DNA of 64,000 nt from Schmidtea nova. Its lineage: Eukaryota. Shown here piece by piece: positions 2,179-49,965 of the stretch (positions within the stretch are counted from its first letter, which is position 1; each line of letters starts with the position of its first letter). The notes beneath the pieces were generated by a model. The model was not told where the DNA came from. It did no database searches and saw nothing but the letters and a program-made list of their open reading frames with translations. The stretch is taken from assembly GCA_044892505.1 (NCBI GenBank), contig CM097883.1, positions 164,920,001 to 164,984,000 of the forward strand, written 5' to 3'. Both the position numbers and the translations under genes were made by a program.

Positions 2179-4039
2179 CTAGCTCTACCCGTTCACGTGT
2201 TGCTGTGTTATGCATCTAATTAAAAATCTGAACAAAAAGGCAGTTTTGTAACATCAAACAAAATTAGAATATTTAAATAATCATTAATTTAAATTCTTTT
2301 TAAACATAATGGGGACTAAAATTGGTGTCAGAAATTAAAGAACTTACCCGATACGCGTGGCCCCTTAAGGGAACCACGCTCTGCTATCAATAGTTTTGAC
2401 AATAGGTCCAGATCTCACAGAATCCATGGTTTCTGATGAGAATTTCAATTCGGACAAGATTTTCAAAAGCATTCGAAACCTATTTTTTTATAATTTACCA
2501 ACTTTAATTTCAAAGAATCAAAATTACATACCCAAAATTAATTTTTTAAAGATTTAAATTGAAAATTAATTGCGAATAATTTCTTCCACTTAGACTAGAA
2601 TTTTCAAAATTTATATCATTGTTACTTCAATATAAATTATATATATTTATTGTAGTGCTTGTAAATATAAAACATTTTTTGTTTTCCTATCTGGTGCAAG
2701 AACAAATAAATTTAATGGTTTTCCAACTCGTGAACACCCAACGTACAGCTGTCCATGTGAAAAGCATGGATTTATCAAATTTAATCCATATATTTGCAAT
2801 GATTGTCCCTGTGCTTTGTTAATTGTCATTGCAAAGTCTAGTCGCAAAGAAAGCTGTAGACATTTGAATTCAAGTGGAGTATCTGTTGGTATTATAGGAA
2901 TGCGTTGTAGTAGTACATGTTGCCCTTGGTGTTTTCAATTTAAAATGGTTGCCTCAATTATGTTATTCATTAATTTTTTTACTGATAGCCTAGTCCCATT
3001 GCATAGTCGCAATGGATTTATATTTCGTAGAAGGATGATTGGAGAACCAATTTTCAAAGATAAAATATGCGGTACTATTCCTGGTAGATCTAATGAATTT
3101 AAAAATTCTATTGGATAATTAACTGATTCATCGTGATTGACAACACTATCTATGGATTTATATGTTGTTTCTTCACCAGGTATTTCATTTTGAGTTATAC
3201 AGTTCTGCGATAAATTTGGAAAAACTGGTAGAGTTTGTCGAAAATCACCAGCTAGCAAAATGAGTGCACCACCAAAGAGCTGCTCATTTCCTCTCAAATC
3301 TTTTAATGTGCGATTGAGTGCTTCCAATGATTTCTTGTGTGCCATGGTGCATTCATCCCATATTATAAGCTGACATGATCTTAGTACTTTTCCTATCCCG
3401 GAATATTTGCTAATATTAATTGTTGGAGTTTCAATTGCCTGCATATTTAATGGAAATTTCAATGCTGAATGTGCTGTTCGACCACCGTCCAAAAGAGTTG
3501 CTGCAATACCAGATGATGATATAGCAAGGGCAATATTATTTTGTGATCTTATAGTTTTGCCAGAATAATTGAAATAAGAAAAGTTTTGCCAGTGCCTCCT
3601 GGTGCATCTAAGAAATATAAACCGTAATTCTTGTTAGATGCTGCATTTATAATTGTGTCATATGCTGTTCGTTGTTCTAATACCAATTTCGGCAGATTAA
3701 TTCGAACAAATGTTTGTAATTCATTAACATCGAAGTGCGTTTCTCGTTGTATATCACGATCGAAAATGTCATTACCAGATCTATTTGGAGCTATCATTCC
3801 CAATCCTGTCAGTGATTTGCTGGCTATCGTCAAACATACATCCTCAATTAAAATCAATGCTTCATTGTATATATTTGCTTTAAATTGAATGTTGGGATTA
3901 GCATTTATTCTACGCATGCGATGTAAAATATCTTCACTCATATAGTCTTAATATTATTCCAAAATATCCTTTGGATTAGCCGGAAAACATGTAGTTAATA
4001 TGATGAAAAATAGTGTACGTATCTGCTGTGGTTGAGCAG
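2179..4039 (-). mobile_element. Helitron 3' part: 3' CTAG terminus and broken PIF1-family helicase
   Basis: Walker [12 protein letters not shown] (3549-3941), IIWDE and LLAGDFRQ (2935-3492), FAMTINKAQGQSL and HGQLYVGCSRV (2647-2847). The minus strand ends ..CACGTGAACGGGTAGAGCTAG|T at 2179. Multiple frameshifts and internal deletions. Confidence 0.92.
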
Positions 4040-4416: not shown

Positions 4417-4977
4417 TTAATCGCTCAATAACATTGACGGATTGATCACATCTAATAGTTGTTGTTCAGTCAGTCCACTCAGTAAATCGACCTCGCTACC
4501 GAGTCTCTCTGCGTAAGCCCTTTGTTCCCGACGTCTTTTTGCTCCTAGACGGTTTCGGAACTTCGTTCTTTTTGAGCCTTCCAGCGGCGTCAATATTACT
4601 GGGGTGGGCGTCGTAGTATCTTGTTCTGTCTCAGTCTGGGTACTGGTCGTCATGGGTAGGGTTTCGACCCAGCGGTTGAACGTACTCGCCCGGATGAGAG
4701 GGCGTAATTGTTGCGTTATAAATTCCTGAGTAGAGGCTTTTAAGTAGTTATGGAGCTCTAACCTCACCGCTGCGGTCTCCCTGGATTGTTCCTCGGCGAT
4801 ACGCTCCGCTCTATACCTTGCCTGTAGGATAGATTTCACTTGTTCAGGGTTGAACCATGTGGTTTTAACACGTTGATGCACCTCGCCTAATTGGCGTAAT
4901 CGACTCTCCAACACCTTTGCGCGAGCTTTATATTCTTTGGCTTCTTTTCTGAAGTCACGCGGGGTCTTATTATTCAT
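4417..4977 (-). CDS. Family E ORF2: orphan coiled-coil protein with basic C-terminal tail (186 aa, intact)
   Basis: Homologous to ORFs at 11.7, 26.8, 28.0 and 38.0 kb (W/YFxPxxxK..LELxNxxK..FIxxQLxxLIR). Tail RNRLGAKRRREQR. TTTTAG directly precedes the ATG and AATAAA overlaps the stop. Confidence 0.7.
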   Translation of the reverse strand: MNNKTPRDFRKEAKEYKARAKVLESRLRQLGEVHQRVKTTWFNPEQVKSILQARYRAERIAEEQSRETAAVRLELHNYLKASTQEFITQQLRPLIRASTFNRWVETLPMTTSTQTETEQDTTTPTPVILTPLEGSKRTKFRNRLGAKRRREQRAYAERLGSEVDLLSGLTEQQLLDVINPSMLLSD

Positions 4978-7133: not shown

Positions 7134-8336
7134 GCAGTATTAGAGATATCAGCGAGTGAAATATCTCAATGAGCATCTTTTTCTAAGAAATTTAATTTCT
7201 GGCAAGCCTCACGAAATGTAATACACACATGGCCTTTGACTGTTTTTAATTCTTGGAAAGATGTTGGTCCACGATCATTGATTAATAATAATCTTAGGTA
7301 AAAGCATTCTGCGTTATCTGGATGTACAGTGAACTGACGACACAATGCATCAGTGGAATATAAATTTAAGTGTTCTTGTACTGCTTTACCGTGTTTACAA
7401 CGCTGAAATTTTCTTGTTGATGCATTCCACGTAAAATAAGTTGGTATTTCAGAGTACAATAGTGTCCTTGCAAAGATATAATTTCTACATAATGTAAAAA
7501 CTTCAGTTAATGTTAGTGGTGGTGACATTGCTCTTGCACGTACATTTTCTGATGTAAAATACACACGCTGTCCATTTTCAAGATGTACTACTAAATGAAC
7601 AACCGTTGGATATCGCTTATGAATGGAAAATGACAAAATACGACATACAACCTCATTGCTACTTATGTATCGTTCCATTTGATATTGGGTGACTTCATCG
7701 TTAGATGCAGTTGTATTTTTCACTCCAAACACTGCCATATCGATTCGTTTGTTCGCATATTTACAAATATATTTTATAGCTTTCATTGAATTGCAGTGTG
7801 CGTTTTATGTTTTTAGTAGTAATGGAAAATATGGTATTACCCAACGATTATCATCATCAATAGTATTGTTGAGTACTTTTAGTTTAATGGATTTTCCACC
7901 ATCTTCGGTAGATCGTCGTCGATAGAGTGGATATTCATCATTGCCTGTAATAGTTTCAGGAAGTAAGTAACCACTTTGTGCACTTTCCATCTGACATGCA
8001 TGGTGAATTATTATTTAGTTAGCCACATGGACCATGAATCATAGTTTTTGAGACAATATCGTGCAAGTCTTTATCAATTTCAATGTCTGGTATTTCTGCA
8101 GAGATGATTTCATCAAATCTGTTTGGTGTTATCATTGCATCTTGTGCATATTCATGCATGTGTCTTGGACTGCCTGTAAATGTGGATGGTAAAATGACCA
8201 TTTTTGCCAATTCACTGAGATTGCCATCATTTACAACTGCATCACGTAAATGGATATACTCTTCAGAACGCAATTTGACTTGATTTAGTTGTATGTAGAG
8301 GAGTCTTTCACTTTCTATTTATGCATGTCAACATTG
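7134..8336 (-). mobile_element. Helitron Rep region (continuation of the 2179-4039 element), internally deleted and 5'-truncated
   Basis: IKYICKY (Rep motif 3 region), RVYFT, ECFYLRLLL, EEYIHLRDA, ILPSTFTGSPRHM. The segment carrying the HUH motif appears missing after QDAM. Truncated at 8337 by a TGTTGGG end. Confidence 0.9.
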
Positions 8337-16491: not shown

Positions 16492-16560
16492 CAGTGGCGT
16501 AGGTAGGGGGGCGGGGGGCGAGCTGCCCCGGGCGCCATCTTGGGGGGCGCCGAAGAGGAA
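16492..16560 (+). mobile_element. Isolated hAT-like terminus
   Basis: CAGTGGCGTAG followed by a GC-rich GGCGCC subterminal stretch. No partner end seen. Confidence 0.45.
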
Positions 16561-17261
16561 GATACAGTATATTCATGCTAGACTAACTCTCTCTCAAAGT
16601 TTGCGTAAGATAAAAGAAAAACAGTAGTTTCTTTCCTTGCATCAGGATGTCGTCCACAGTCTAGTTGTATATCTGCTGCTTCAGTCTATTTAGTTGTTCT
16701 GCAGCATCAAACTTGTTAGGTTCTTAGGAAGGGAGAGAGCCATGTCACTCATGTGTTTCATTTCAAACCCACCAGCCACAATCTAGGCACAGATCTCCGG
16801 CTCAGGCAAGGTGGAACTTGGTGACCCCTTCATGCTCCAGCCACCAGTCATTTCACATCGTTGACGTAGAGCCAATGTTTTGAAAGCTGCTCTTGCTATC
16901 TAGAACGTCTGTGCAGCACACCTTGCCCACGGGGTGTGGGAACGTGGGCATGGCCTGCTGAACAGACGGTCTAGATAGATAGTATAGGAGCCTCATCACC
17001 GCTCTGGCTCAGCCACCGACAGCCAGCCAGGATCGATGTGTTCAATTTCACATCCGCCAGGCCGCAATGTCGGTCGGCACAGATCTCTGTAGTCAAGCTC
17101 AGGCAAGTTGGAACTTATCGACAGGCTTGCACTTGGTGACCCGTTCAAGCTTCGCCTTCATCCAGTCATTTCACATCGCTGTGACAACGGGAAAAAATAC
17201 GGTTTCCCGAGATTGATAATTAGTTGCATGTAAAAATAACGTTTTGTTGACATTTTTAGAA

Positions 17262-17777
17262 ATGAACATCGAGCAAAAGATAGAAGAATTCTTTCGGTTA
17301 TCCCTCGAAAACGTGAAGCATAATCGAAAAATAGACAATTGCTTTGCCGAGCTGGAATCAAGGAAGACATCAAATTTGGATGCTCTACAAATAATGATTT
17401 CCCGAATGGAGAAATTCCGAGCTCGTTGTCGAAAAATGGAAACGACATGGTCTGACAAGAATACTGTCGATAAATTGAAAAAGCAAAATCAAATGCTTCT
17501 GCAGCAGGCCGCCGAAGACGCGTTGACGTTGCGCGCGTGCAAAGTGTCTATGCGGGAACAGGAGCTTCTGATCGAGAAGTTAAGAGCAGATAGTGGCATC
17601 ATTGCAGCCGTACTGCCGAAAATACAGCAACCCTCTCAAGAATTGTTTCCTGTCAGAGTCGAGGAGGAAACCCAGAAGCCTTTGGCTTCTGAAAAGCCTA
17701 AACGTCAGAAACCTAGTAAAGGGGTTATAGCGCGAAGAAGACGTCGTCAGGAAGCTCGCCTATTAGGTCAATTATGA
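17262..17777 (+). CDS. Divergent family E ORF2-like coiled-coil protein with Arg-rich tail (copy E4, plus orientation)
   Basis: TTTTTAG-AA-ATG start, METTWS (compare KTTWF), tail KGVIARRRRRQEAR, followed ~360 bp later by the family motif. Confidence 0.55.
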   Translation: MNIEQKIEEFFRLSLENVKHNRKIDNCFAELESRKTSNLDALQIMISRMEKFRARCRKMETTWSDKNTVDKLKKQNQMLLQQAAEDALTLRACKVSMREQELLIEKLRADSGIIAAVLPKIQQPSQELFPVRVEEETQKPLASEKPKRQKPSKGVIARRRRRQEARLLGQL

Positions 17778-18228
17778 AAGGAGTCTACCGAACTTTTTGA
17801 CTTGACACTAATTTGATCTGACTATTATCCACTCTAGTAAATCTGACTAACTGTTGCGAAAAAGTGATTTTGGTCATTAATGTTTTTATTGTGATATATA
17901 TTGGTATTTGGTGTGTATTTCCTTGTAATCATATGAAACTTTTGATTTGAGTTTTAAATTGAATTATTGTTTGACTGGAATGCGTAATGAGAATACTTGG
18001 TGAAAACGAATAACGATCGGTAGGAAAAAACCAATTGAGATAGAATAATAAATTCTAGCTGATGAAACCTTATTTCGCTAATTTCCCATAAATATCGGTA
18101 GTTGAATTATAGAAGAAGGCACAAAAATGGGCAGTAGACCCTCTATCGGTAGCCCTTGGATCCAGGAGATATTCGGTCAATCATAGTTTCGAATTTTCGA
18201 CGCTCACAGATTGTTCAACAAAATCAGC

Positions 18229-19288
18229 ATGGGACGACTTGAGGAGGCAATAAAAGCGTCACAAGAAGATACAATTCCTTCGCTTTCCAACTTCTTAAAT
18301 CGAAATTTCTTACAATGGAATCAGAATTACGCTCACTTGCAGTTTTTCAAAACATTCTCTAGATTCCTTGTCGGTCAAGAACAGCAGGGCACAAATGGAT
18401 ATGAACATATCCAGTGCTATTGGGAAGTAATCTTTATTATTATTAATTTATTAAATAAATAATAATTTGGATTATAGGTATATAAAAACATGTCAGTTTT
18501 TGCCTTTATGGCGAAAAATGGATTACGCTTTGTACAAGAGGTTGCCGGCGTTGACCGAAGACAGGCGATCGAATACGCTATAAAGGCCGATACGAGAGTC
18601 GCCGACGGAATCCAGGTTCGTATAGGAAAACCCAGTAAGTACAATGCAGATAATCAAAAACTTTGTAATTTTAAACGAGCACTGGATGCTAAAAATCTAT
18701 CAGAAGCAATAAACATTATCAAATCATCTGAGTCTTCATTTTCTTCAAAGAGAAAAAGTATTGTCGAGTCGCTAATAAACAATTTTGGAGAGGAAACTTT
18801 GCCTAATTTTTGGCTCTAGCTTCTTAATTAACTTAATTAATGTTTACGATTGGAAATCACATGTATTTATCGGAGAAAGTGGTATCAGTAAGACGAATTT
18901 TGCTTTAGCTCACTTCAAGCACCCTGTGCATTTGAAACATCTTCAGAGTCTAAATAAAATATCGGGGAATGCTGATCAATGCGATGGTTTGGTATTCGAT
19001 GATTTGTATTTTAACAAATCAAGGGTTGACGAATTTTTGTGTTTAATATACTGCGCGTATGAAAACGCGGTAAATATTAAATATAGCGTAACAACAGTTC
19101 CGAAAGGCATTCCTCGTATATTTTGTATCAACGATATCGATATGTTCTACCCAGAAACATGTACTAGTAGTATAATGGAATCGATTCCGCGAAGAATAAA
19201 GATACATAAATTTAAAGGAAATATATTTAAAACTTATATAGGTGAAAAAGTAACAAATGATATATTTGATTTTTTTATATTATTTTAG
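18229..19288 (+). pseudogene. rep: Endogenous CRESS-DNA-virus-type Rep (HUH endonuclease plus SF3 helicase) with one intron and one frameshift
   Basis: Motif II GQEQQGTNGYEHIQCY, motif III QAIEYAIK, Walker A GESGISKT, Walker B GLVFDD, motif C RIFCIN. One extra T in the T run at ~18806-18810 breaks the frame. Confidence 0.85.
18427..18477 (+). other. Putative 51-nt GT-AG intron in rep
   Basis: GTAATC..TTATAG, extremely AT-rich, contains an in-frame stop. Removal fuses ..HIQCYWE to VYKNMSVF.. in frame. Confidence 0.75.
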
Positions 19289-19459
19289 TCAATGAAACAT
19301 CCATATGCGAAGAGTCCGACGAAATGAAAAAAACAAAATGCAAATTTATTAGTCTCCAGTGTAACAAATGCCAAAGTTTAGTTCGTATCTATTTAGGAAT
19401 CTGTAACAGTAGCTTATAAATGTCAAGGAGTTTCTAGTCAAATATATATAAAAATGTTA

Positions 19460-20229
19460 TATTAATAAATTTAATACATAACACAACCAGCATGGCACTA
19501 ATATAATTAACAACAAACGCCAATCCAAATATATATTTTGCACAATATATTTCGAGAACTTAATTCTCTTCATCAGGTGCTACCCAATCTTACATCGAAA
19601 TATAAATCACATAAATCGATTTATTCGAACAAATTAGTATGTTTATAATTAGTGTGTTATAATTAGTGTGTTTGCCTCATTTTTTGCGGTTTAAGTAAAT
19701 TAACTGATGTGGTTGTTGGTGGTGTTTATTTTCTTCTTTTGATTTGTGTTCTATACTCGTTTAATTTTTCAAATGTCATGGGCGTAATGCCACATACTTT
19801 GGACAAGACTGACCGTCTTTTCTGTACTCGAGTTTTAGAACATTTTCAATTGGGGATTATGGATTTCGTTTTCAATCATTCTGTTGTTTATAAATATGAA
19901 AATATTTATAATATATTCTTAAAAAAAATATTTTTTTGTATAAAAATAAAAGAATATTATATTTTTAAGATTGAATTATTTAAATTTAAAAATTTTTAAT
20001 CGATATAAGTTTTTTGACTATAATAGAATTTAAAATATATATTTTATTTTAAAAATTAATACTAATTTGTTCGAATAAATCGATTTATGTGATTTATATT
20101 TCGATGTAAGATTGGGTAGCACCTGATGAAGAGAATTAAGTTCTCGAAATATATTGTGCAAAATATATATTTGGATTGGCGTTTGTTGTTAATTATATTA
20201 GTGCCATGCTGGTTGTGTTATGTATTAAA
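19460..20229. repeat. Long inverted repeat (~180-bp arms at 19460-19640 and 20059-20229, ~420-bp spacer); partial third copy at ~20317-20355
   Basis: The arms are reverse complements, e.g. CATCAGGTGCTACCCAATCTTACATCG / CGATGTAAGATTGGGTAGCACCTGATG. Confidence 0.95.
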
Positions 20230-20399
20230 GAAAGATAATAATCCGTCAGTTGTTCCGGTATTCTGTGAAAGTTTGTCTAGGAAAATATTTGTATTTAATT
20301 TTTATAATTCTAAATGTGCAAAATATATATTTTGATTGGCGTTTGTTGTTAATTAATAAATTTATTTGAAAAATTTATTTATTTTTGAAAAAAATCATA

Positions 20400-20940
20400 C
20401 TTAACATCGGTTAAAATTTTAACACTTTTGAATTCATCAATGTTATTATTAAACACATAAGGATTTTCGCATACAACATATCAACTTCGATTTCTTAACG
20501 CTAATTGATCCTCGGTTGCGTACTTCCATATGGGATGATTTTTAGATATAATGCATGGCACTGATGGAAGGCTTGTCTTTGAATCGTTTTTTCTAGAGAC
20601 ACGTAAAAAGATATTTCCTTCACACATGAGTTTGATTAAATTCACATTTTTAATGCCACAGTAGATCTCTTCTCCAATAATCATCTGCTTGCCGACACAG
20701 TCATCAAAACAAAATTCAGATTGACATTGGGCTCCTGTGAAGAAACCATGTGTCCAGTTATCACGACATATCGCTGTGAATAGAGATTTACCAACATTAC
20801 TGCAGCCTTCTAAAATAATTGTCTTTGTCTTTCCAGTTTGAGATATGAGTATCGTAAATATCCCAATAACGCGACGAAGAAACTCCTTATCTTTTTCTTA
20901 ATATAATGCACTATGGCTAGACAATATTGAATTAATTTGT
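20400..20940 (-). pseudogene. NS1: Endogenous parvovirus/densovirus-like NS1 SF3 helicase fragment
   Basis: Frame reads SQTGKTKTIILEGCSNVGKSLF (Walker A) ..EFCFDDCVGKQMIIGEE (Walker B; compare the parvoviral FPFNDCxxKxxIWWEE) ..LPSVPCIISKN (motif C). Internal stops. Confidence 0.8.
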
Positions 20941-21354
20941 CTATTGTGATCGTCATTAAAATAAAAATTATTATTGCGAATAAAATCTTCCATAAAGTTT
21001 GAGAGTTCATTATAAATCAACAAATCGTTCATCAATAATTGTTTTATGACTCATATTTTTTAATCCACAGTAACCAGTTGATTTACTTCACTATCCCACT
21101 TAACAGTTACTTGATACTGCGCTTATATAAATGATATGAGTAAATCCCATGACATCATTTTGTTCGCGTCGTGCTTTTTAAGAGACTTGGGGGAGGGGGG
21201 ATAGAGGGGACCCCTGTATATTGACCCACCCATTTGTTGCATTACCAACGTTACATTGTGACGGGCAACAAGATGGTTAATTCTAATATTTTATGTGCTG
21301 AGTTGATGATGTGAGCCATAGCAACGTCAAGGTCATATTGACTATCAACAACCC

Positions 21355-23223: not shown

Positions 23224-25347
23224 CAATGTTGTCCAACCTTTTTTGAGCCAAGGCACCCGGTAAAATTAGAAATTTTAACGGCATACCATTTTTTTAATTT
23301 ACTGCATTTTTCGTTGAAATACGTCAATATATTCTGAAAATAATAATACGAAAAAATAATATTAAGTGTTAGAATGTTAATATAACAATATCTAAATGGG
23401 AAGATTGAGGTTGGTGGTTCGAACAAATAAGTTCCAACCGAGCTTTAATCTTCGACAAACAAACTCTTAATTCCTTATCAATATTAACCATGCGCTTCTT
23501 TCATTCGATTGTTGTAAGAGCAGAAAATCCTAGTTCGCAAAGATATAAAGAACCAAATGGAAGCAATGTTTCGATAATTTTTAAACTCAAATCTGGATAT
23601 TCATCAAAAACAAAAATCCAGAAATGGGATAATTCTTTCTCGAAAAATAATCTCTTCAAATTAATATCGTTTTTTTTATCAAAAAGATTTTCCAGTTCAG
23701 TGCCCGTCAAAATTGTTTCAGATGCTTGAACAAATGGATTGATTACCGAAGAAACTTTGCTTATATCGAGATCTCGGAAATATTGCCTGAAAGTCGTTGC
23801 GAGATTTTTTAGTGTAGTAATTACGTCAGAGATGATTTAATATTTTTCTTTTGACGAATCGAGATCAGGGAACCAACTCAGCTGTCAAAAGTTTTTGTTT
23901 TTCTTAAATTGATTTTAATTTGCAAGAAATTGTCAAAATATTTTCGCTTGATCTTTGAATACTGACATTAAGTATATTCAGCTTTTCAAAAATGTCATTC
24001 AAAAAAATTAGAACCACCATTTATCTTTCTTAAGAACTTCAAATGTCGTTTTATGAGAGTTAAAGAAAGTTAAAATTTCTTTCAATGTGATGAATCTTGC
24101 AAGAACTTTTCCCTTAGGTAGCCAGCGATTCTACGTTGAATAAAGAATGAATTTAAAGCTTGAGTCCATGGAATCACACAATCTTTCAAATATTCTCGAT
24201 CGCTGAGCACTCGATTTTATGTAAATGACGATCTTGACAACATCATTCATTGTGTTTTTAATATTATCAGGCAAATTTTTCGACATCAACATTTCCCAGT
24301 GTATCATGCAATGATTTTCTTTGATAGCTGGGTTTTGCTTAAGAACATAAGCTGCAAATCCTTTTTATTACCTTGCATCAAGTGGGCACCATCCATACAA
24401 ATAATAATGACAATCCATTTATTGCAACTTTTTCGTTTACTAATTCAAAAATATTTTTTTCCCCAGTAGTTCTCTGCTTTAAGTCATCACAAAAAAGTAT
24501 TCCTCAATTATTTTTTAATCTTTTATGATTCTCAAAAAGAGACAGTTGGGACTTATTGCTATTGTCTGTGCTCTCATCAATTTGGAGTGCCCATATTTTA
24601 TCATATCCTTCTGAAGTTTCAGAAAAATGATTTTTCAGCTGTTCATGAATGCTTGCAGACTTATCACAGACTCTACGAGATATTGTATGATGTGGGAGTG
24701 TAATCCTTTTTAAAATTTTCTACCTCTTCATTATCAGCAGCTATTGTTAGTGCAGTAAGATTTATTGATACAGCATCAAGGTGTGGTTTCTTTTTAACAA
24801 GCATTTGTGCGATTTTGTGGCTGGTCATTAGAGTTTTATCGGATATTCTTGTGAATGCTTTAAATTTCTTGGTCTGGTTCAAGAAATTATCTTTCAATCT
24901 CGTAAAATAAATTTTTGGTTTATCTTTTAATTGTGGATATTGATGTTGAAAATTTCGTTCAAGTTTGCTCGGAACCGTGGACTCGTTAGCAAATAGTAGA
25001 GCACACAATGCACATTTGAATTGAATAATCTTTTTCTGATGTTAAAAAGCCAAATTTTTACACTTTTTGTCGTACATACGCTTTTTTATTTCCTTTGTAA
25101 TTCCTGCTTCTTTGTTTTTATTAGGAATCTCTTCATCATAGAACTAAAAATAATATTTATGAGCTAATAACTTATATAAAACAATACTTAAGTTATTGAA
25201 GGATCTATATTAAATTTACACAAGAAAAATTCTGTGACCGTTTAATTTTAATACATAAATAATTTATCCTTATCTGCGATTATGAAAACACAGGTATTTT
25301 TTATCATTTTATGAAATGTTTCATGGCACACCAGTTGTACAACACTG
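23224..25347 (-). mobile_element. hAT (Buster/Charlie-like) DNA transposon, 2124 bp, decayed transposase
   Basis: TIRs CAATGTTGTCCAAC / GTTGTACAACACTG, perfect 8-bp TSD CATTATTC. ORF pieces ANESTVPSKLERN and LLPFGSLYLCELGFS (hAT dimerisation domain). Confidence 0.95.
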
Positions 25348-27245: not shown

Positions 27246-30009
27246 TATTGTGGTCCTGGATGGGTTAAAACAAAAGATAAACGCTCTAGGGATGACTCCA
27301 TCCAAGACCAAACATAAAATGCTTTCGCGACACACAAGCACCCTCGACTATTTCCCTGGATAATCGAGTTGGAAATGTGCAAGGTGTTTGAACAATGATG
27401 GGCAGGTGAGCTCTATTACTAGAACTACTCCCCATTTAAGTTCACGGGTCCATTGCTGTCGATAGAAGGACTTACGCTTTACTTTCATTTTTCTTCCTCT
27501 GAATTCATTATCTTTCATTTTAATTTTCCTGCCCCCTTCTTAACAACATCAACAGATAATTCGGATAATTGTTTATATATCTGAGCTTTAGATTCCTAAT
27601 GTTTGTCATTTATCGAGTTGTGTTAGCATTTTGTCAATATAATTTGTATTTGATTAAATTAAATTTTTAATAAATACTTTATTTTACCTACTTTACAAAA
27701 TATAAGCACAACAAAAAAATTATAACCAAACTATAAATTTTTACGAAACGATAAACTTTAGTTAACTAAATTTAACAAAATTTATTCAAAAAATTAAAAA
27801 AAACCGTCATCAAATGTAACAAAGTTTGTCGATAGATCGATTTCAGGAAGATCATCGTTATGCTGGATCATTTGCATCGCAAATTGTTTCTTCCACCGTC
27901 GTTGTCTTGCCCCCATCTTGTTCTTCTTTTTCTTTTTAATTTCGATTGTTGATGAGCTTTTCGGTACGATTGGATTTTCCATTTCCCGAACCTGCGATGG
28001 TCCTTCAGTATTTGTTCCCCCTGGACCATCCTGCTTTCTCTTCCGACCAATGTTGATAGGTAATTGGCCGGATTAACTGTTTTAACTCGCGATCTATGAA
28101 TGATGCTGTGACCGCCTTGAGGCATTTTCTTAACTCGATCTTTGTTGCCTCGAGTTCAGTTCGATATTCTTCTCCCGCTCTCTGAGATCGTTGATTTTTC
28201 ATGATTTGTATCTTCATTTGTTCAGGGCTGAACCAACTAGTTCGAAAATGAGAAATTGTGGCTTCAGCTGTTTTCAGTTTTTCGGTGGTTCTGCCAATTT
28301 CTTTCTCAAGGCTGCGAACGATTCGCCAAGCCTTGTCTAATTCGGTTTGTGGATTCGTTGGATTACTTGACATTTTCTGAAATCAATTAGTGTCATTAAT
28401 TATTGATGGATAGATTTCGATGGATTAGTATTATATTGATAGATTCTGTTTCATAATTTCCTCTGAAGATCTTTGAGGTTTATTTAACCATTATATTACA
28501 ACTACGGAGTGAAGTAAAATACATTCTATATCTCAACACTGTCGCTATGTACAGCGATCAGATAAATTCATTTATAATGTTTATTTGTACCTGTGCTATC
28601 TACAGCAATTAGGTTGATAATTTATTTACAAAGTTTTTAAGATATTACTGCCCTATATACAGGGATCAGTCTAGCAAATTAAATGTATCATATTTAAATT
28701 ATTCCGTCGGCTACTCATGAACCTTTCAGTTATTTGCGCTTGATCGGGTATCCATTGTAATAAGAAGCCTACACTGATTTGTTGTTACGCCGACCTGATG
28801 AAATCAAATGCAAAATCAAGCTCAATGTAACCACTGAGTTGGAAGTATCGATCATTATGGTCAATTTGTGCAGAATTCATCTATCATAAACTATCCTGCT
28901 ACGGTAGGAAAAATCAATGTGTCTTAAACCTATTCATTACACTGTAGCGATGTCGTATCGACGGAACTTCAAAACCATCTAATGTTATTCATATGGATAA
29001 GTGTCTGTGAAATAATGATCTCTTGGTTTCTAAAATGTGTATTTCATTCCGGAAAGTTTCGGAACATTTATTGAGCCTATATTGCTATGACCACCAAAAA
29101 TTTCTGACTCTCTCGTGTGCTTAGCCAATCTTCTGGATGTCCAATCTCGAACACGCTAGCCTTGTCTGCATTTCAATTTTATATTACAATCGATAGTTTA
29201 AGAAAATCACATTTGTGTGAAGCGGTTAATCAAATTGATGTTCAATAATTTAATAATAAAATAATAATTCTAACCGGCTGACTATACTGACCAGCAATAA
29301 TCATAAATTTCAATTATCAAAAATAAAATCTCCTACCCTCTTCATGACACTTAATACCATGAAGACGGCCTAACTGTGCGAAGTAGTTAAATCTACTCGG
29401 CGCAGTCTGCCTCCTTCCACCGATTTCACGGTGGACAGGAGCCCCCTTTAATCTTTAAACATAATATCAAATTAATTCAATAAATTTGCCTCCTTCCACC
29501 GATTACACACATAAATATTTAATGCAAAACAGAAAATCGTGATAACATATTACAAATAAACAAAATCAGCCATACCTGCTAGCTATTTTCAAATTTCTGA
29601 TTGAAATGTGTTTCAGACAAAAATTGTAAAAACATTAAAATCATTTGATTCTGCATCAGTATTTATACTGATCAGATCAACCGGTTGGCCAATCAGCGTC
29701 AAGCTGATGGTCGTTATAACAATTTATTTATTTTTGTTTTAATCAATCATTATTAAAATTTAATTAATTATTTATTGTAATTGATAAACATATATAATAT
29801 ATATTTTAATCATTAAATCTCATTTATTATCTTTTTACATCTTAATTTTGTTTTCTTATAATTTTATAATATCATTTATTTCTTTTTCTATTACTTTTAA
29901 TTCCTTTTAATGGAATTTCTTTCAAATACATTAATTTACTTTATTCGTATTTATTTTCTCATTATTATTATTTATATATTCAAATGTTGGCCAAATGGTG
30001 GACCCAACA
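27246..30009 (-). mobile_element. Family E copy E6 nested in E5
   Basis: Motif 27366-27471, ORF2 27794-28373, CCAAT at ~29690, ends CCCAACA at 30009. The left junction is approximate. Confidence 0.65.
27794..28373 (-). pseudogene. Family E ORF2 copy (one frameshift near 28000)
   Basis: TSWFSPEQMK..LEATKIELRKCLKAVTASFIDRELKQLIRPIT; tail KKKKKNKMGARQRRWKK; TTTCAG-AAA-ATG start. Confidence 0.7.
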
Positions 30010-36397: not shown

Positions 36398-37105
36398 CAG
36401 CGCCGGTTCGAGATAATTATACGCCCCAGGCGAAAATTATAAAAAGCGCCCTATTTTAAAAATTAGGTACAAAAATTATGATAAAATAAAAAAGATTAAC
36501 AAAAAACAATCTATTTATTACTTCATTTCATTTTTTTCGATTGATTTACATATATATTTATAAAAAAAACAGAATTTATAAGAATGATTTTTTCCTGGCT
36601 TTCATGTCTGCAAATTTTTCTATTGCTGCCTCCAAATTTAGGTTTGCTACAACATTATTTTCAATTGAAATAATGGCCAAATTATTCAACCTATCTTCCG
36701 TCATAGTAGATCGCAAATACGTTTTTATTAGTTTTAATTTACTAAAACTTCTTTCACCACTCGCAACACTAACAGGAATTGTTACGAGGATTCGTAAAGC
36801 CACCCATAGATTTGGTACTGTACTTTTCAAATTATTATCATTGATAAATTGTAAACATATTAAAGGATCTTTAACATCATCTGGTACCAATTGCTTCAAT
36901 GTTTCGATTTCCTCGCACAATTCTAATCCATTTATATCACTATATTTTTTTTAAACGGTTGGTTTCATAGATAAATTTCAAAATATAAAGTTTTGGAGGC
37001 TTATTTTATAATTTTCTTTGATTGTTTATAATAAATTTTGGCGCCCTCTAAAAAAAGGCGCCCTATGGCTATGGCCTAGGTCGCCTGGCCCTTGGGCCGG
37101 GCCTG
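36398..37105 (-). mobile_element. Non-autonomous hAT deletion derivative (708 bp)
   Basis: Perfect 8-bp TSD AACAGGAC, ends CAGCGCCGG / CCGGGCCTG. ORF 36576-36920 has PVSVASGERSFSKLKLIKTYLRSTM (hAT dimerisation domain). Confidence 0.95.
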
Positions 37106-38027: not shown

Positions 38028-38387
38028 TCAGTTGTCGTCGTCTCGCGCATGTGATTTCCGACGATTCCGGGGTCTTCGCTCCTGCGATCCTTTCGTTAAT
38101 TTCGTTTCCATCTTCTCATCAGGCAATCTGGGAAACCAATTTTCGAGAGTTATTGGCCTGATCTGGTCTCGTAATTGTGTGGTCACAAAATTCTCGGTAA
38201 TCATGCGCCGACAGTTTTTCATTTCTAACCGGGTCGCTTCAAGTTCGATCCGCTGCTCTTCGATCGTCGTTCGCGCTCGTTGTAATGTCTCCTGAACTCT
38301 CTTCATCTCCGCAGGATGAAAGTAACTCTCTTCCAATTCAATTATCCGACGTTTTAACTTTCCCATCGTTTCTCGTTCTGACGTCAT
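38028..38387 (-). CDS. Family E ORF2 copy (119 aa; may be prematurely stopped)
   Basis: ESYFHPAEMK..LEATRLEMKNCRRMITENFVTTQLRDQIRPIT..RRPRNRRKSH. Confidence 0.65.
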   Translation of the reverse strand: MTSERETMGKLKRRIIELEESYFHPAEMKRVQETLQRARTTIEEQRIELEATRLEMKNCRRMITENFVTTQLRDQIRPITLENWFPRLPDEKMETKLTKGSQERRPRNRRKSHARDDDN

Positions 38388-38660
38388 GGTTTTCTTAAGG
38401 AAATTTACGATATTAGTGGAAATTTTAGTTATTGATTCGCCTTGTTAACTGAATCCTTCATCTCTACACTATTTTTACTCTCTGGTTGCCCTTGTCACTC
38501 ACCACTCTATCATACTCATTAAGGTGCACCTATTATTATTTTAATATTCTCGGTTATATATGACAATTTAGATTAGAAAATGCGCGCAACACATACAACG
38601 AAATGAACACGAAATTTGTATATTTTTAACTATAACACTTTGCACAACTGCAGATGGTAA

Positions 38661-41266: not shown

Positions 41267-41308
41267 TGTCGGTTTAATAGAAATAAACCAACAATTTTAC
41301 AATCGTAT

Positions 41309-41722
41309 TTAGAATTCATTGTTATTATTTACTTCAAGATCTCTAATGACAATGGAAAGGTTTTCAAATTCATCATCTTCGTACTTTTCCATTATATTAT
41401 AATTATCATTATCAATATGAAAATCCTCATCACAGTCGATGTCGGAATAATATTCCTGATTTTTTTCTTCATCCGAATCTATGACTCGAATCAAGTCCAA
41501 ATTTACATAATGAGAATCGTATTTAAGTGGAGCAATCGTTAAGATTTCAATAACATCATTTTCATTACTAGTAAATATTTCATCAATTCTCGATCCACAT
41601 GATGGACACCTGTTTGTAACAAGGATCCATTTCCATATGCAATCCTCACAGAACTGATGTTCACATCCAACAGCCTTAACAGTCTTTGAACAATTATTTG
41701 ATAAGCAAATACAGCACTCCAT
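41309..41722 (-). CDS. RING-HC (C3HC4) protein with acidic C-terminus, copy 1 (137 aa)
   Basis: CxxC..CxH..CxxC..CxxC spacing: CCIC, GCEHQFCEDC, CPSC. Confidence 0.8.
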   Translation of the reverse strand: MECCICLSNNCSKTVKAVGCEHQFCEDCIWKWILVTNRCPSCGSRIDEIFTSNENDVIEILTIAPLKYDSHYVNLDLIRVIDSDEEKNQEYYSDIDCDEDFHIDNDNYNIMEKYEDDEFENLSIVIRDLEVNNNNEF

Positions 41723-43819
41723 ATTATTAGTTATAAGTTATCAATGAATGTCAGATTTAACTTTCAATTAAAACTAAATATTTACAAAACTAAAATGACG
41801 TAAACATGATTTTCCGTAGAAATTATTTTATACAATTTTAAAAATTGAATGTAAATTATTATAATAATAATAATATTTGTTTGTTTGAAAAATAATAAGC
41901 TTTTTGAGGAATGAAAAATAAAACCAATTTTTTAAAGATTAAATTAGTCTATCTTAAATTGAATATATTTTCGCCAACATGAAACGAGTTTAGAAATTTT
42001 AGTTTGAAAAAACTCAAAGCCCACGAGGCGATGAACTCTTGAAAGCTGGGTTTTGGACTGCCATTGTTACTAAATATCTTTTCGAGCAAGAACTGATTCG
42101 CTGCTTGTAAAACTGGCTATCTGTGGGCGAGAAGTCGTAACTATGATTAATGATTAACATAATCAATACTATTTCATTAAAAGCAATGTAAAAACTTTAA
42201 ATTTATCGATACAAAATTGTTCTCTTCAGAATCTACTCACTTGTTCCACCTTGACAGTAAGTCACTAATTCTTTTCTTGTAAAATCCATCCTCGTCTAAG
42301 GTGAAGAATTCGCCAAAAGCCTATTAATTTTCATTCTAATTCCAGAACTTTATAATGCATTGCTAATACTTTAGTTCAGATACTTAAAAATGTAAAAATC
42401 TCTAGAAACAGGTAGGCGGGAAAATGAGTTGAAACAAAGTAGATAGAAATCACAGATTGACAGGTGTACAAGTTTGCATAAGGAAGAAGTTAAAATAAAT
42501 AGTTTAACAAAATTAAACTAACGACAAGGAATCGTTGTACAAAATGTTGATAACTAAAAGATATACCGAAAAATATGCGTAATGATTGTTGAGAAAACAC
42601 CAGAACTGTAAAGATTATAATAAAATCAGCAACTTCATACTTGATAACCTAATAGTTATGATTTGATTCTGTTGAGTTTTACTAACTGTGTAAAGTTATT
42701 CAAGGCACTTACACCGATATTTATTTAGAATTCCAAAAAAATAATTGCCATCATCAGTTAGTATTTTGTGAGTTACATAACTTTGTATAAATGTCTGTTA
42801 ATAAAGTGAGACAAGTCCAATTAAAATGAGATATTCAAAGATTTGCGTCTCAATAAATGTTGTGTGTTTTGTGATTATACTAAAATAAAATATTGCTATA
42901 CCTTAATGAATTTTCACTATTAAAGAATAAACGGTTCATGTCACAAAAGAATTTTATAGCGTTTTAGATATTCTCGTCCATTTCGTGGTTCAGAATATTG
43001 ACAGTACGGAAGATACTCTACTTTCTAAAAATTATCTTTTTATTGCTTAATGGAAAGACAAAGAGGTAGATAAGTTTGAAGAGCAAAAATCATCAGGGAC
43101 ATTTTTGTGGTGGAAATCATTCCAGATGTGTACTGAATAATTCTGAAAAGGTAGATGACAGAATTGATTCCTTGATGGAAAGTGAGATTAAAATAGAATG
43201 AAAGATAAGAGGCTGTCCAAGTATGATCAACAATGTTGGTGCTTTAGAAATCGAATGAATACGGGAAATAGCCAATGGGGAACGTGTTAGAAGAGATACT
43301 AGGAAAAGATGGAAGAGCGCGTTTCTTGAACGCCAAATGTGATAGAAAGAGATAACGAGATTGTTTTGGAAATTGAGTCTTATCGTAGAAGTGAAGTGAA
43401 TAGAAAATAATGTTGACATCGAGGTTTCATGGAGGATGATTGTCAATTCTAGTGAGCATTTGCATGCTTTTTTATTTTTTTTTCTATAATTTGTTTGTTA
43501 GATAACAGTTAGGTAAATATATTATTTGATGGATTGAGTTTTATGGTTAATTAAGAAGAGATATATTTACAAAATAAAAGTTTGTTATTTTTTAAAAGAA
43601 AATACAAAAAGGTACTTCCTTTACCAATTCTTTAAGGAGACATTGAGGAAAGTGTGGTGACAATTTTATTTCAAAAATAAAACAAGTGGAAAAGATGATT
43701 TGGATGTTTTATTATTTTCGAATAGAAAAGAGTTAAGAATTATAAAGTCTTTTGTGCTTGTTAATAAACTTCAGGTCTAATTATAAATATGATAAAATAA
43801 TAACTATATTTACTAATAA

Positions 43820-44868
43820 TGTTGGGTTATTGGGTCGTTGGTTACTTTATAATTAACAAATTATTACCCTGACTCCAAACGTGCTTTTAATTGACCCACA
43901 ATAACAACTGATAGCATGAAAATTTTATTGATTATCACAAATAACTTCGATTTACAATGAACTGACCAAATTCAAACTACAGCTGATTATACAGTGCTTA
44001 TTACGACACTATAGTGAAGAACAACACTAGTGTATAATCGATGTTCGAAATCCCTCACTGCTGGGGAGTATAACAATTGGTAATTTGGCTGGTTATTTTC
44101 TTTATTTGACTTGGATTTACTCGCTGAATTTTACTAGCTCTATTTTCTCAAACTCTTGAATAAGCTCCTTCTGCTTATCCCTTAGTTTCTGGTTTCGATT
44201 GTTGAATTCTCCTTTTGACTCTTCTTTAATTTTCTCTGGACGTTTTCTGCTTCAAATTTCTCCTGTTTTCCTCTGACTTCAGTCTTTAAACGCAAATATT
44301 CTCCGCAAAATATGTTCTCTCAAATGTTCTGTCTCAAACGTTGTCTCTCAAATATTCTGTCTACAATGTTTCTCTAACCACTTCTGTATACAATGTTGTG
44401 TGTCTTCTGAAATGCTTCCTCCTTTTATACTTCTTCACTTTGTAGCACTTAAAATTATCAGCTGTTGTTACATTTTTCCAACATGATTTTCCATTCATTT
44501 TCTCAGCAACGGAGTTATCTTTGACAGCTGTCAAGATAACCTCTGTTTTTCTCCTTTTTGCCGCTCCGGCTTGTTTGCTTTTTGACCACATTATCTCTGA
44601 CCGGTTGTCAAGATAAAATTCTTGTTGTTGTTTTTGTTTTTCCCAAATTTAGAATTTCTTCCTATTTGCACTAGTTAATTAGTGCTGACCTCTATTTCGT
44701 TTCGCTTGTCTGATTTCTTTTCTTTTGTTTCCCCTTCTCATTTCTCATTCCTTTTTATTTCCGTTTTCTTACACAGGCTCCAATCAATCGTGTCATTCCC
44801 CATGACAATTTTCCCCCAAGTAATTTTGTTTATTTATTATATTATTTTGAATTTAGGTATCCTCAACA
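43820..44868 (-). mobile_element. Solo LTR (1049 bp) with 4-bp TSD ATAA; repeated at 47943-48991, 52065-53113 and 56187-57235
   Basis: ATAA-TGTTGGG...CTCAACA-ATAA. TATA-like CCTTTTATAC at 44421 and minus-strand AATAAA at ~44101. Confidence 0.88.
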
Positions 44869-45428
44869 ATAATATGCTTGATTACTATATTTAAATTTAT
44901 TTTAAATTATTTATATTAATAAATCAAAATATAAACCTTTTTAATTAAAAAAGAATGTAGTTAGAATTTCAAAAAAAAGTTAAAAATGTCAAATATTCCA
45001 GAACCTCAAAACTTTCAATTTTAAAGTGAGAAACCCCAATCTATGTTTTCAATGATCAAAGCTTTCGTGGAAGTTTCGACGATTCGATCAAAGATTCCTA
45101 TTATAAGTCAATTCGGTGTCATTGCCTACTCGGCCTATTTGGTTAGCGAAAGAATTAAAGTTATTACCAAAAGCAAAGAAGATATCTGTTTTTAAACTAA
45201 TAAAATTTACTATCTTTTAAATTGTGATTCATTTACCACATCACATTCTTATTTAACCAAACTTATAAATTTGATTGATTTCTCTCATTTATTGAAATCA
45301 GAAATCATTTAAAAGGTACACAAACAAAATTTATAAGGAAAAATTGACTTTTGTTTAAAACTTAAAATTATTATCAATATAACTAAATAAACAGAAATAG
45401 AAATAAACCAACAATTTTACAATCGTAT

Positions 45429-45842
45429 TTAGAATTCATTGTTATTATTTACTTCAAGATCTCTAATGACAATGGAAAGGTTTTCAAATTCATCATCTTC
45501 GTACTTTTCCATTATATTATAATTATCATTATCAATATGAAAATCCTCATCACAGTCGATGTCGGAATAATATTCCTGATTTTTTTCTTCATCCGAATCT
45601 ATTACTTGAATCATGTTCAAATTTACATAATGAGAATCGTATTTAAGTGGAGCAATCGTTAAGATTTCAATAAAATCGTTTTCATTACTAGAAAATATTT
45701 CATCAATTCTCGATCCACATGATGGACACTTGTTTGTAACAAGGATCCATTTCCATATGCAATCCTCACAGAACTCATGTTCACATCCAACAGCCTTAAC
45801 AGTCTTTGAACAATTATTTGATAAGCAAATACAGCACTCCAT
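45429..45842 (-). CDS. RING-HC protein, copy 2
   Basis: Intact 137-aa ORF, near-identical to copy 1. Confidence 0.8.
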   Translation of the reverse strand: MECCICLSNNCSKTVKAVGCEHEFCEDCIWKWILVTNKCPSCGSRIDEIFSSNENDFIEILTIAPLKYDSHYVNLNMIQVIDSDEEKNQEYYSDIDCDEDFHIDNDNYNIMEKYEDDEFENLSIVIRDLEVNNNNEF

Positions 45843-48800
45843 ATTATTAGTTATAAGTTATCAATAAATGTCAGATTTAACTTTCAATTAAAACTAAATA
45901 TTTACAAAATTAAAATGACGTAAACATGATTTTCCGTAGAAATTATTTTATACAATTTTAAAAATTGAATGTAAAATTATAATAATAATAATAATAATAT
46001 TTGTTTGTTTGAAAAATAATGAGCTTTTTGAGGAATGAAAAATAAAACCAATTTTTTAAAGATTAAATTAGTCTATCTTAAATTGAATATATTTTCGCCA
46101 ACATGAAACGAGTTTAGAAATTTTAGTTTGAAAAAACTCAAAGCCCACGAGGCGATGAACTCTTGAAAGCTGGGTTTTGGACTGCCATTGTTACTAAATA
46201 TCTTTTCGAGCAAGAACTGATTCGCTGCTTGTAAAACTGGCTATCTGTGGGCGAGAAGTCGTAACTATGATTAATGATTAACATAATCAATACTATTTCA
46301 TTAAAAGCAATGTAAAAACTATAAATTTATCGATACAAAATTGTTCTCTTCAGAATCTACTCACTTGTTCCACCTTGACAGTAAGTCACTAATTCTTTTC
46401 TTGTAAAATCCATCATCGTCTAAGGTGAAGAATTCGCCAAAAGCCTATTAATTTTCATTCTAATTCCAGAACTTTATAATGCATTGCTAATACTTTAGTT
46501 CAGATACTTAAAAATGTGAAAATCTGTAGAAACAGGTAGGCGGGAAAATGAGTTGAAACAAAGTAGATAGAAATCACAGATTGACAGGTGTACAAGTTTG
46601 CATAAGGAAGAAGTTAAAATAAATAGTTTAACAAAATTAAACTAACGACAAGGAATCGTTGTACAAAATGTTGATAACTAAAAGATATACCGAAAAATAT
46701 GCGTAATGATTGTTGAGAAAACACCAGAACTGTAAAGATTATAATAAAATCAGCAACTTCATACTTGATAACCTAATAGTTATGATTTGATTCTGTTGAG
46801 TTTTACTAACTGTGCAAAGTTATTCAAGGCACTTACACCGATATTTATTTAGAATTCCAAAAAAATAATTGCCATCATCAGTTAGTATTTTGTGAGTTAC
46901 ATAACTTTGTATAAATGTCTGTTAATAAAGTGAGACAAGTCCAATTAAAATGAGATATTCAAAGATTTGCGTCTCAATAAATGTTGTGTGTTTTGTGATT
47001 ATACTAAAATAAAATATTGCTATACCTTAATGAATTTTCACTATTAAAGAATAAACGGCTCATGTCACAAAAGAATTTTATAGCGTTTTAGATATTCTCG
47101 TCCATTTCGTGGTTCAGAATATTGACAGTACGGAAGATACTCTACTTTCTAAAAATTATCTTTTTATTGCTTAATGGAAAGACAAAGAGGTAGATAAGTT
47201 TGAAGAGCAAAAATCATCAGGGACATTTTTGTGGTGGAAATCATTCCAGATGTGTACTGAATAATTCTGAAAAGGTAGATGACAGAATTGATTCCTTGAT
47301 GGAAAGTGAGATTAAAATAGAATGAAAGATAAGAGGCTGTCCAAGTATGATCAACAATGTTGGTGCTTTAGAAATAGAATGAATACGGGAAATAGCCAAT
47401 GGGGAACGTGTTAGAAGAGATACTAGGAAAAGATGGAAGAGCGCGTTTCTTGAACGCCAAATGTGATAGAAAGAGATAACGAGATTGTTTTGGAAATTGA
47501 GTCTTATTGTAGAAGTGAAGTGAATAGAAAATAATGTTGACATCGTGGTTTCATGGAGGATGATTGTCAATTCTAGTGAGCATTTGCATGCTTTTTTATT
47601 TTTTTTCTATAATTTGTTTGTTAGATAACAGTTAGGTAAATATATTATTTGATGGATTGAGTTTTATGGTTAATTAAGAAGAGATATATTTACAAAATAA
47701 AAGTTTGTTATTTTTTAAAAGAAAATACAAAAAGGTACTTCCTTTACCAATTCTTTAAGGAGACATTGAGGAAAGTGTGGTGACAATTTTATTTCAAAAA
47801 TAAAACAAGTGGAAAAGATGATTTGGATGTTTTATTATTTTCGAATAGAAAAGAGTTAAGAATTATAAAGTCTTTTGTGCTTGTTAATAAACTTCAGGTC
47901 TAATTATAAATATGATAAAATAATAACTATATTTACTAATAATGTTGGGTTATTGGGTTGTTGGTTACTTTATAATTAACAAATTATTACCCTGACTCCA
48001 AACGTGCTTTTAATTGACCCACAATAACAACTGATAGCATGAAAATCTTATTGATTATCACAAATAACTTCGATTTACAATGAACTGACCAAATTCAAAC
48101 TACAGCTGATTATACAGTGCTTATTACGACACTATAGTGAAGAACAGCACTAGTGTATAATCGATGTTCGAAATCCCTCACTGCTGGGGAGTATAACAAT
48201 TGGTAATTTGGCTGGTTATTTTCTTTATTTGACTTGGATTTACTCGCTGAATTTTACTAGCTCTATTTACTCAAACTCTTGAATAAGCTCCTGCTGCTTA
48301 TCCCTTAGTTTCTGGTTTCGATTGTTGAATTCTCCTTTTGACTCTTCTTTAATTTTCTCTGGACGTTTTCTGCTTCAAATTTCTCCTGTTTTCCTCTGAC
48401 TTCAGTCTTTAAACGCAAATATTCTCCGCAAAATATGTTCTCTCAAATGTTCTGTCTCAAACGTTGTCTCTCAAATATTCTGTCTACAATGTTTCTCTAA
48501 CCACTTCTGTATACAATGTTGTGTGTCTTCTGAGATGCTTCCTCCTTTTATACTTCTTCACTTTGTAGCACTTAAAATTATCAGCTGTTGTTACATTTTT
48601 CCAACATGATTTTCCATTCATTTTCTCAGCAACGGAGTTATCTTTGACAGCTGTCAAGATAACCTCTGTTTTTCTCCTTTTTGCCGCTCCGGCTTGTTTG
48701 CTTTTTGCCCACATTATCTCTTACCGGTTGTCAAGATAAAATTCTTGTTGTTGTTTTTGTTTTTCCCAAATTTAGAATTTCTTCCTATTTGCACTAGTTA

Positions 48801-49551: not shown

Positions 49552-49965
49552 TTAGAATTCATTGTTATTATTTACTTCAAGATCTCTAATGACAATGGAA
49601 AGGTTTTCAAATTCATCATCTTCGTACTTTTCCATTATATTATAATTATCATTATCAATATGAAAATCCTCATCACAGTCGATGTCGGAATAATATTCCT
49701 GATTTTTTTCTTCATCCGAATCTATTACTTGAATCATGTTCAAATTTACATAATGAGAATCGTATTTAAGTGGAGCAATCGTTAAGATTTCAATAAAATC
49801 GTTTTCATTACTAGAAAATATTTCATCAATTCTCGATCCACATGATGGACACTTGTTTGTAACAAGGATCCATTTCCATATGCAATCCTCACAGAACTGA
49901 TGTTCACATCCAACAGCCTTAACAGTCTTTGAACAATTATTTGATAAGCAAATACAACACACCAT
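49552..49965 (-). CDS. RING-HC protein, copy 3
   Basis: Intact 137-aa ORF (E2V variant). Confidence 0.8.
   Translation of the reverse strand: MVCCICLSNNCSKTVKAVGCEHQFCEDCIWKWILVTNKCPSCGSRIDEIFSSNENDFIEILTIAPLKYDSHYVNLNMIQVIDSDEEKNQEYYSDIDCDEDFHIDNDNYNIMEKYEDDEFENLSIVIRDLEVNNNNEF

Follow-up and report, generated by a model that had tools for sequence, protein, structure and literature searches.

The DNA analysed here (the window) is a stretch of 64,000 nt from Schmidtea nova, which contains, lying between host repeats, the remains of a viral element: a decayed Rep gene of the CRESS type with an overlapping ORF, a stand-alone helicase gene convergent with it and part of an inverted terminal repeat (ITR). 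Two groups of related loci in the same genome, type A (20 loci close to the window copy) and type B (20 more distant loci), were used for comparison. Pfam gave no match over the cut-off for the Rep pieces in the window, and assignment of the Rep to its family needed intact relatives. The features of the element and its flanks are as follows.

18096-18213 (no strand): high-copy host repeat, abutting the truncated 5' end of the Rep and forming the left limit of the surviving element
18211-18427 (+): 3' remnant of the overlapping ORF (match to the overlapping ORF of locus L085, E 1e-8)
18214-18426 (+): what is left of the Rep exon that precedes intron 1, truncated on its 5' side; three-frame reading and tblastn with type-A exons
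18427-18477 (+): intron 1, 51 nt, GT..AG, phase 0, 90% AT, specific to type A
18478-19249 (+): Rep main exon, with motif III, central domain and SF3 helicase (YAIK 18574-18585; altered Walker A 18872-18895; Walker B DD 18998-19003; motif C 19118-19132; RR 19190-19195)
19250-19288 (+): predicted intron 2, 39 nt, GT..AG, 87% AT, common to types A and B
19289-19419 (+): predicted last Rep exon, 12 codons with a conserved P-Y in the Rep frame, the stop ending at 19327
19470-20229 (no strand): host MITE-like insertion with 171-nt perfect inverted repeats, inside the viral element
20382-21032 (-): stand-alone SF3 helicase gene, Pfam Parvo_NS1 E 1.5e-9
21040-21220 (-): remnant of the right ITR with a G-run/C-run/CCAAGT motif, outer hairpin lost

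A preliminary description of the locus had presented a nearly complete HUH plus SF3 Rep, broken only by an intron and a single frameshift. The HUH plus SF3 architecture of the CRESS type is upheld, but the gene is far from complete, as about 130 codons of the 5' exon that are present in relatives are missing from the window copy. Within the 5' exon remnant (tblastn queries: type-A exons of L074, L075, L078 and L085), a motif-I-like YNSFAFQL lies near 18267-18290 (the region reads RRYNSFAFQL), with a stop upstream of it in the Rep frame. Since this region and motif II (HIQ) lie in different frames, a second frameshift must be placed near 18341-18347. The SF3 helicase stands in a frame other than that of the exon start (ORF 18779-19288), and the frameshift near 18806-18819 that follows from this agrees with the earlier account. 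The breaks are thus more numerous than had been supposed, comprising, in addition, the second frameshift, the second intron and a Walker A motif that reads GISKT in the window versus GIGKT in 8/8 other type-A copies. The overlapping ORF, which in relatives carries a P-x-C..C-xx-C pattern, is also broken in the window (near 18341-18357), and the ATG at 18229 is in its frame and not in that of the Rep. The window copy cannot encode a whole Rep; it is dead and represents a right-hand piece of a type-A genome.

We show that this copy is chromosomally integrated and flanked by host repeats. Contigs from four public runs (three samples, one study) were compared over 16500-19900; 18184-19497 is spanned by one contig in three of the four runs and by two pieces in the fourth, with 0 other letters and 0 gaps relative to the assembly in all four. 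The helicase frameshift, previously regarded as a possible sequencing error, has the same letters in every run, an agreement that is not fully independent in that the sample used for the assembly may be among those of this one study. The Rep is covered at a depth of 11-39, which is single-copy-like, as against hundreds of thousands for the repeats that flank it on either side, and the run contigs pass from the Rep into host repeats at the single-copy-like depth. Considering that these contigs join the Rep to host repeats and that the window is part of a 456-Mb contig of the 1.25-Gb assembly, we argue against contaminating viral DNA, which had been named as a possible source. Under NCBI table 9, COX1 of the assembly has an open frame and a conserved Asn position carries AAA, which points to the flatworm or echinoderm code. 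Two identical-scoring COX1 copies lie 23 kb apart on a 54.7-kb contig (G000:C101), likely a doubled mitochondrial assembly, and a decayed nuclear COX1 copy is present in G000:C1 at 352.4 Mb.

Elsewhere in the window, a tandem array at about 41300-61000 has a 4,122-bp unit and five copies of a RING ORF on the minus strand (at 41309, 45429, 49552, 53674 and 57796), the RING finger being over the Pfam cut-off. Short coiled-coil-like ORFs, some with W-F-x-P, recur at 4417-4977, 17220-17777, 28005-28382 and 38028-38444 as well as in many other loci, and are likely a host mobile-element family; Pfam gave nothing over the cut-off for the one at 17220-17777. Fragments at 2935-3947, 7166-7804, 23501-23836 and 36576-36950 resemble Helitron RepHel and hAT transposases in their motifs and may belong to these families.

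The 51-nt intron between Rep motifs II (18406-18414) and III (18574-18585) was proposed in the preliminary description and is confirmed by comparison of the copies. Of 21 type-A loci (the window included), 14 allowed mapping of both exons, four were too broken and three had no row; L082/L083 and L086/L087 are near-duplicate pairs. GT..AG is found at the same codon boundary in 11 of these 14, with lengths of 51-56 nt in 13 and 26 nt in one. In type B the site is mappable in 12 of the 20 loci, and there the insertion is absent in 12/12, the sequence being colinear with the type-A exon ends. Within the window the intron is 90% AT, versus 63-65% in the flanking exons, and holds three in-frame stops. 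Judged by this comparison, intron 1 is a real spliceosomal-type (U2-type) intron, and splicing of the Rep is predicted from the conservation of its intron sites. Readthrough of intron 1 under another genetic code was considered and rejected because 9/14 of the type-A lengths are not multiples of three.

Intron 2 is predicted from a GT donor present in 26 of 29 mapped rows (one of the rows, L094, is a stray segment) and from an acceptor AG 37-44 nt further on, followed by an in-frame P-Y, in 21/29. The end of the Rep gene is therefore likely to lie beyond 19288, in a short last exon past this predicted intron; a second frame over that exon (19291-19419) has a C-xx-C motif that is present in other copies too. 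Since the Rep introns are common to independent copies, they are older than integration. By eye, type-B loci L092-L110 have an extra AT-rich GT..AG stretch of ~45-50 nt about 850 nt upstream of the helicase, which seems to connect the Rep frame and the one overlapping it to a short exon further upstream. In three relatives from public assemblies (P0003, P0012 and P0013), motifs I and II are separated by a hydrophobic segment that resembles an intron read as coding sequence, at a different site again. A spliced rep occurs in some Cressdnaviricota families. Intron-interrupted Reps are also noted in the literature (PMC6186406).

Downstream of the Rep, the stand-alone SF3 gene (~215 aa, two in-frame stops, no HUH domain seen) runs convergent with it; the earlier account mentions neither this gene, at a distance of 1 kb, nor the second intron nor the additional lesions. 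The motif of the ITR remnant beyond it is also found at the ends of type-B copies, and host repeat begins at about 21224. Summed depth over the left part of the MITE-like insertion is ~4e5 or more versus that given above for the Rep, and type-A relatives align across 19470-20229 without it. Its 171-nt inverted repeat was considered as an internal repeat of the PEVE type (see below) and discarded as part of a high-copy host element that is absent from relatives. No capsid gene was found in the window by tblastn with the type-B capsid or by tblastx with type-A and other capsid regions, in agreement with the preliminary description; the gene is missing from this copy and kept in relatives. Nor does the window element contain an xAxTATTAC nonamer, of which scattered matches occur in L116 and L118.

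Searches of the genome gave 75 matches among 90 candidates with the Rep helicase exon, 62 among 81 with the Rep nuclease region, 34 among 42 with the capsid and 59 among 71 with the SF3 gene, matches that are not to be read as copy numbers. On this evidence the genome holds dozens of scattered relatives, the window Rep being one of them. Type-B copies, of about 6.1 kb, have the order ITR - SF3(+) - capsid(-) - Rep(+) - ITR; the SF3/capsid/Rep order holds in 13/13 type-B loci (chosen by their capsid matches), six of which have paired ITRs of 190-238 nt. Type A, the group of the window copy, has the order capsid(-) - Rep(+) - SF3(-) - ITR, with the convergent SF3 gene in nine of the 20 other type-A loci (seven matches and two partial ones). 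Type-A copies end ~190 nt past the SF3 start in the motif common to type-B termini, and a left end was not found in any type-A locus. The type-A capsid gene is found only in L127, where it is truncated, carries the PLA2 domain and lies upstream of the Rep; a small remnant is present in L074. A relation of types A and B as flip isomers of a single molecule was considered and dropped: the genes have no internal inverted repeat between them, and the helicase tree (38 rows) sets the types apart with a support of 79/100. Five loci (L085, L095, L130, L132 and L133) comprise rearranged copies and more divergent capsid/SF3 variants that fit neither type cleanly. A DNA-polymerase-B-like ORF (L047:3-995, minus strand) and an HSP90-like ORF (L095:9299-9999, minus strand), as we take them to be, both adjoin viral copies.

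With regard to the ends, L081 keeps a T-shaped terminal hairpin, and terminal hairpins fold at z -4.3 (L081) and -5.5. The ends of the copies are ragged and, by eye, no target duplication was seen in 6/6 inspected copies. In L120 (right end; 514 nt, 91%), L118 (left end) and L081, the terminal repeats are extended into long palindromes that resemble replicative-form ends of hairpin-replicating viruses. The sequence AAATATTAC, present in the inner palindrome of the L118 ITRs and in the right ITR of L114 and absent from L116, resembles the CRESS nick-site nonamer and may be taken as a lead only.

The proteins of the family point in two directions. The type-B capsid gene (1,036 aa in L109) begins with a PLA2 domain, PF08398 being over the cut-off in both types (type B, E 1e-10; type A, L127, E 5e-9), and the clusters closest to its C-terminal part are those of parvovirus VP (Atlas 0.96), with weak matches to VP2/capsid chains in PDB (E 0.006-0.02); fold prediction for the capsid gave a pLDDT of 30, too low for a fold. 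The SF3 family profile matches the helicase domains of AAV Rep40/Rep68 (E 1.2e-7). The SF3 ORF of the family, ~220 aa from ATG to stop, has no fused parvoviral nuclease, and no upstream exon could fit before it because the ITR begins within about 200 nt; a homologue search with this ORF found none among 140 candidates of near length. The Rep, for its part, is nearest to Cressdnaviricota clusters (Atlas 0.97), its top, weak profile matches in PDB being Rep nuclease domains 2hwt/6h8o (E 0.017) and 7lar. It has motifs I-III and Walker A/B/C, that is, an HUH nuclease fused to SF3 (altered in the window copy).

We find that the closest known system is PEVE, together with its integrated relative PIVE. 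Of 18 pattern matches from a profile scan of IMG/VR, a single one was confirmed (L134), and this is the PEVE type 1 large segment by exact protein look-up; scans with one Rep, the SF3 alignment and the PEVE ITR motif revealed in IMG/VR no further relative and no PEVE small segment. The family Rep matches PEVE Rep NP_476526.1 with hhalign probability 100 at 31% identity, and the window Rep main exon alone with 36% identity over 117 aa (E 6e-27). In the database search, 17 unnamed proteins among 824 hits rank above PEVE Rep, which is thus not the nearest relative there, and in the helicase tree, which has a midpoint root and no proper outgroups, PEVE sits on a long branch beside an unrelated CRESS Rep. 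Like the family, PEVE has a Rep and an overlapping ORF on one strand and a large divergent gene region on the other, as well as ITRs (243 nt). Its genes other than Rep are named in GenBank only as ORF1L-3L; ORF1L matches the family capsid (hhalign probability 79.5, E 1.5e-5), whereas the overlapping ORF has no detectable homology to ORF3L (probability 0.2) and no PLA2 match was found in ORF2L. As a separate observation, ORF1L (L134:207-1128, minus strand) matches the capsid body, and by eye the upstream part is apparently in a neighbouring frame. An apparent, unannotated 56-nt GT..AG intron lies in the PEVE Rep between motifs I and II (L134:4028-4083), and the database Rep protein begins after it, without motif I. 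PEVE differs from the family in being extrachromosomal and in two segments, the family having three genes in one piece and being integrated, and intron positions and ITR sequences differ as well. Rebrikov is said to have described, in 2002, an extrachromosomal, partly single-stranded form of PEVE.

According to the supplement of Liu et al. (2011; PMC3198968), PEVE carries a parvovirus-like helicase on its small segment, and it is on this account that the SF3 link of the family to PEVE rests. The same paper describes PIVE, citing a 2008 Repbase entry, as the integrated relative of PEVE in Schmidtea mediterranea, with PIVE_1p grouping with the PEVE small segment/parvovirus helicase and PIVE_3p with the PEVE Rep (supplement 1). 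PIVE is thus like the family in being integrated and multi-copy in a planarian host, and the 1p/3p groupings fit the type-B order of SF3, capsid and Rep, a comparison made through that description. The account of PIVE in the sections consulted mentions no introns, hairpins or type-A order, and the word 'intron' is absent from the main text (PMC3198968). The kind has been known since 2002/2008; splicing, a capsid assignment and hairpin ends for PEVE/PIVE, and the present gene order, are undescribed in the literature searched, though some of this may stand in subscription articles, in the Repbase entry or in the first PEVE publication, which lie outside that set.

Viewed against established groups, the family shares with Parvoviridae (AAV and the ambisense densoviruses) a ~6-kb linear genome with ITRs, terminal palindromes and genes on both strands, the VP1 N-terminal PLA2, a Gly-rich stretch before the capsid body, an overlapping non-structural ORF and an SF3 helicase close to AAV Rep40. 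It departs from them in that SF3 stands alone, with no NS1 fusion, and in that the nuclease belongs to a Rep of the CRESS type that has a helicase of its own. With the Reps of Cressdnaviricota (nanovirus/alphasatellite, circovirus, geminivirus and genomovirus) it shares HxQ, YxxK, the central domain, the SF3 Walker A/B/C motifs and an Arg-finger-like RR, yet its genome is linear with ITRs, its capsid is parvovirus-like and no conserved nonamer stem-loop was found. Replitrons are likewise eukaryotic multi-copy elements, and their Y1 HUH Rep has a weak link to those of the CRESS type, but it is without a helicase and their termini are short direct repeats (Craig, 2023; PMC10288648), in contrast to the helicase, the inverted terminal repeats, the capsid and the animal host of the family. 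The element therefore fits neither Parvoviridae (no fused NS1) nor Cressdnaviricota (not circular) nor Replitrons (helicase, inverted ends).

Over the Rep helicase exon, pN/pS is below 0.5 in every pairwise comparison, 36 among nine type-A copies (median 0.22) and 276 among 24 type-B copies (median 0.18). Silent sites are mostly saturated between copies, and there is one close pair (pS 0.036). We infer from this pattern that the copies diverged as working genes before decay, in keeping with numerous independent integrations by members of a diverse virus population. An old, diverse transposon family would likewise show purifying selection between its copies, and a host-resident, virus-derived transposon, in which the Rep copies the element to new sites with no infectious stage, is how Liu et al. 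(2011; PMC3198968, section 8) treat such elements. Dozens of dispersed matches, spliceosomal introns, the close pair and several type-B copies whose frames stay open over long stretches and whose paired ITRs are 96-98% alike would all suit PIVE as a mobile element of that sort. The ragged ends, which lie within the ITR, and the kept 1,036-aa capsid gene with PLA2 weigh against it, as do the lack of any target duplication seen, the saturation of most pairs at silent sites with no burst of near-identical copies, and the existence of a free relative (PEVE), so that we regard such a transposon as improbable.

The preliminary description had offered, besides a host-resident element such as a Replitron, an endogenous element of a spliced-rep virus. 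The endogenous viral nature holds, whereas a genomovirus- or mastrevirus-like source does not: the CRESS-like Rep, its weak Gemini_AL1_M matches and a named relative that is a 'CRESS-DNA-virus sp.' Rep could be accommodated by an ordinary circular CRESS virus with a spliced rep, but it is largely refuted by the layout of the family, whose linear ends are fixed and bear ITRs. A capsid of parvovirus type and an additional helicase also speak against it, the nonamer is absent from the window element, and the motif II-III intron is confined to type A, with other sites in type B and PEVE. We consider this source very improbable. Equally improbable is a host gene that has been domesticated, or an antiviral locus under selection such as one that supplies small RNA; the introns are of host type and the copy is present and identical in three samples, but it has two frameshifts, 5' loss, an altered Walker A and stops in the SF3 gene, and the introns predate integration, being common to independent copies. 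A Replitron-type HUH transposon, to which the HUQ-type motif II and the single tyrosine known from Replitrons might point (PMC10288648), is refuted by the SF3 fused to the Rep, the long inverted repeats and the capsid in the family arguing in the same direction, and we give it practically no credence.

With integration among host repeats, conserved introns, lesions, a convergent helicase gene and a common family layout in view, as the sequences present them, we consider it very likely that the window holds a decayed endogenous piece of a PEVE/PIVE-like, likely single-stranded linear DNA virus with an intron-bearing CRESS-type Rep. This putative source virus is known here from integrated copies. 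We suggest that a parvovirus-like particle would hold linear ssDNA with hairpin ends, that the VP1 PLA2 may serve endosome escape during entry, and that host polymerase would extend from the terminal hairpin. By analogy, the spliced HUH plus SF3 Rep may then nick and unwind near the terminal repeat and so resolve the end (rolling-hairpin replication), a task that NS1/Rep78 performs in parvoviruses. The helicase-only protein could act as a packaging motor, as AAV Rep40/52 does. The host spliceosome would remove the Rep introns, and splicing may allow the Rep and the overlapping cysteine-rich protein to share one transcription unit. Entry into the heritable cell line may have occurred many times, from diverged virus lineages, through repair-mediated joining within the terminal repeats; the window copy would afterwards have lost its left half, taken in the MITE and decayed. 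The element thus may function like a parvovirus with a borrowed CRESS initiator, and is best filed with the PEVE/PIVE kind.

Going further, we lean towards the view that PEVE, PIVE and the copies described here constitute one unclassified family of true ssDNA flatworm viruses, in which a parvovirus body plan (hairpin-ended linear genome, PLA2 capsid and Rep40-like packaging helicase) has had its initiator swapped for a multiply spliced CRESS-type Rep. Such a family would be a chimera across two virus phyla, with a rolling-circle initiator resolving hairpin telomeres; it would comprise one-piece forms in two gene orders and a two-segment form, would have invaded this genome dozens of times, and would have gained or lost Rep introns at different sites by lineage.

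Finally, PEVE has been an oddity since 2002, and the genomic fossils add to it a parvovirus-like capsid (matching ORF1L), hairpin ends and introns, the last of which would explain the truncated look of the PEVE Rep. If the proposed family is real, it would represent a clear case in which parvovirus-like viruses and CRESS viruses have exchanged modules, and would provide an example of a linear genome served by a Rep of the CRESS type. The window copy itself is dead and the value lies in the family, whose scattered copies may be read as a record of repeated virus entry into flatworm heritable cells.
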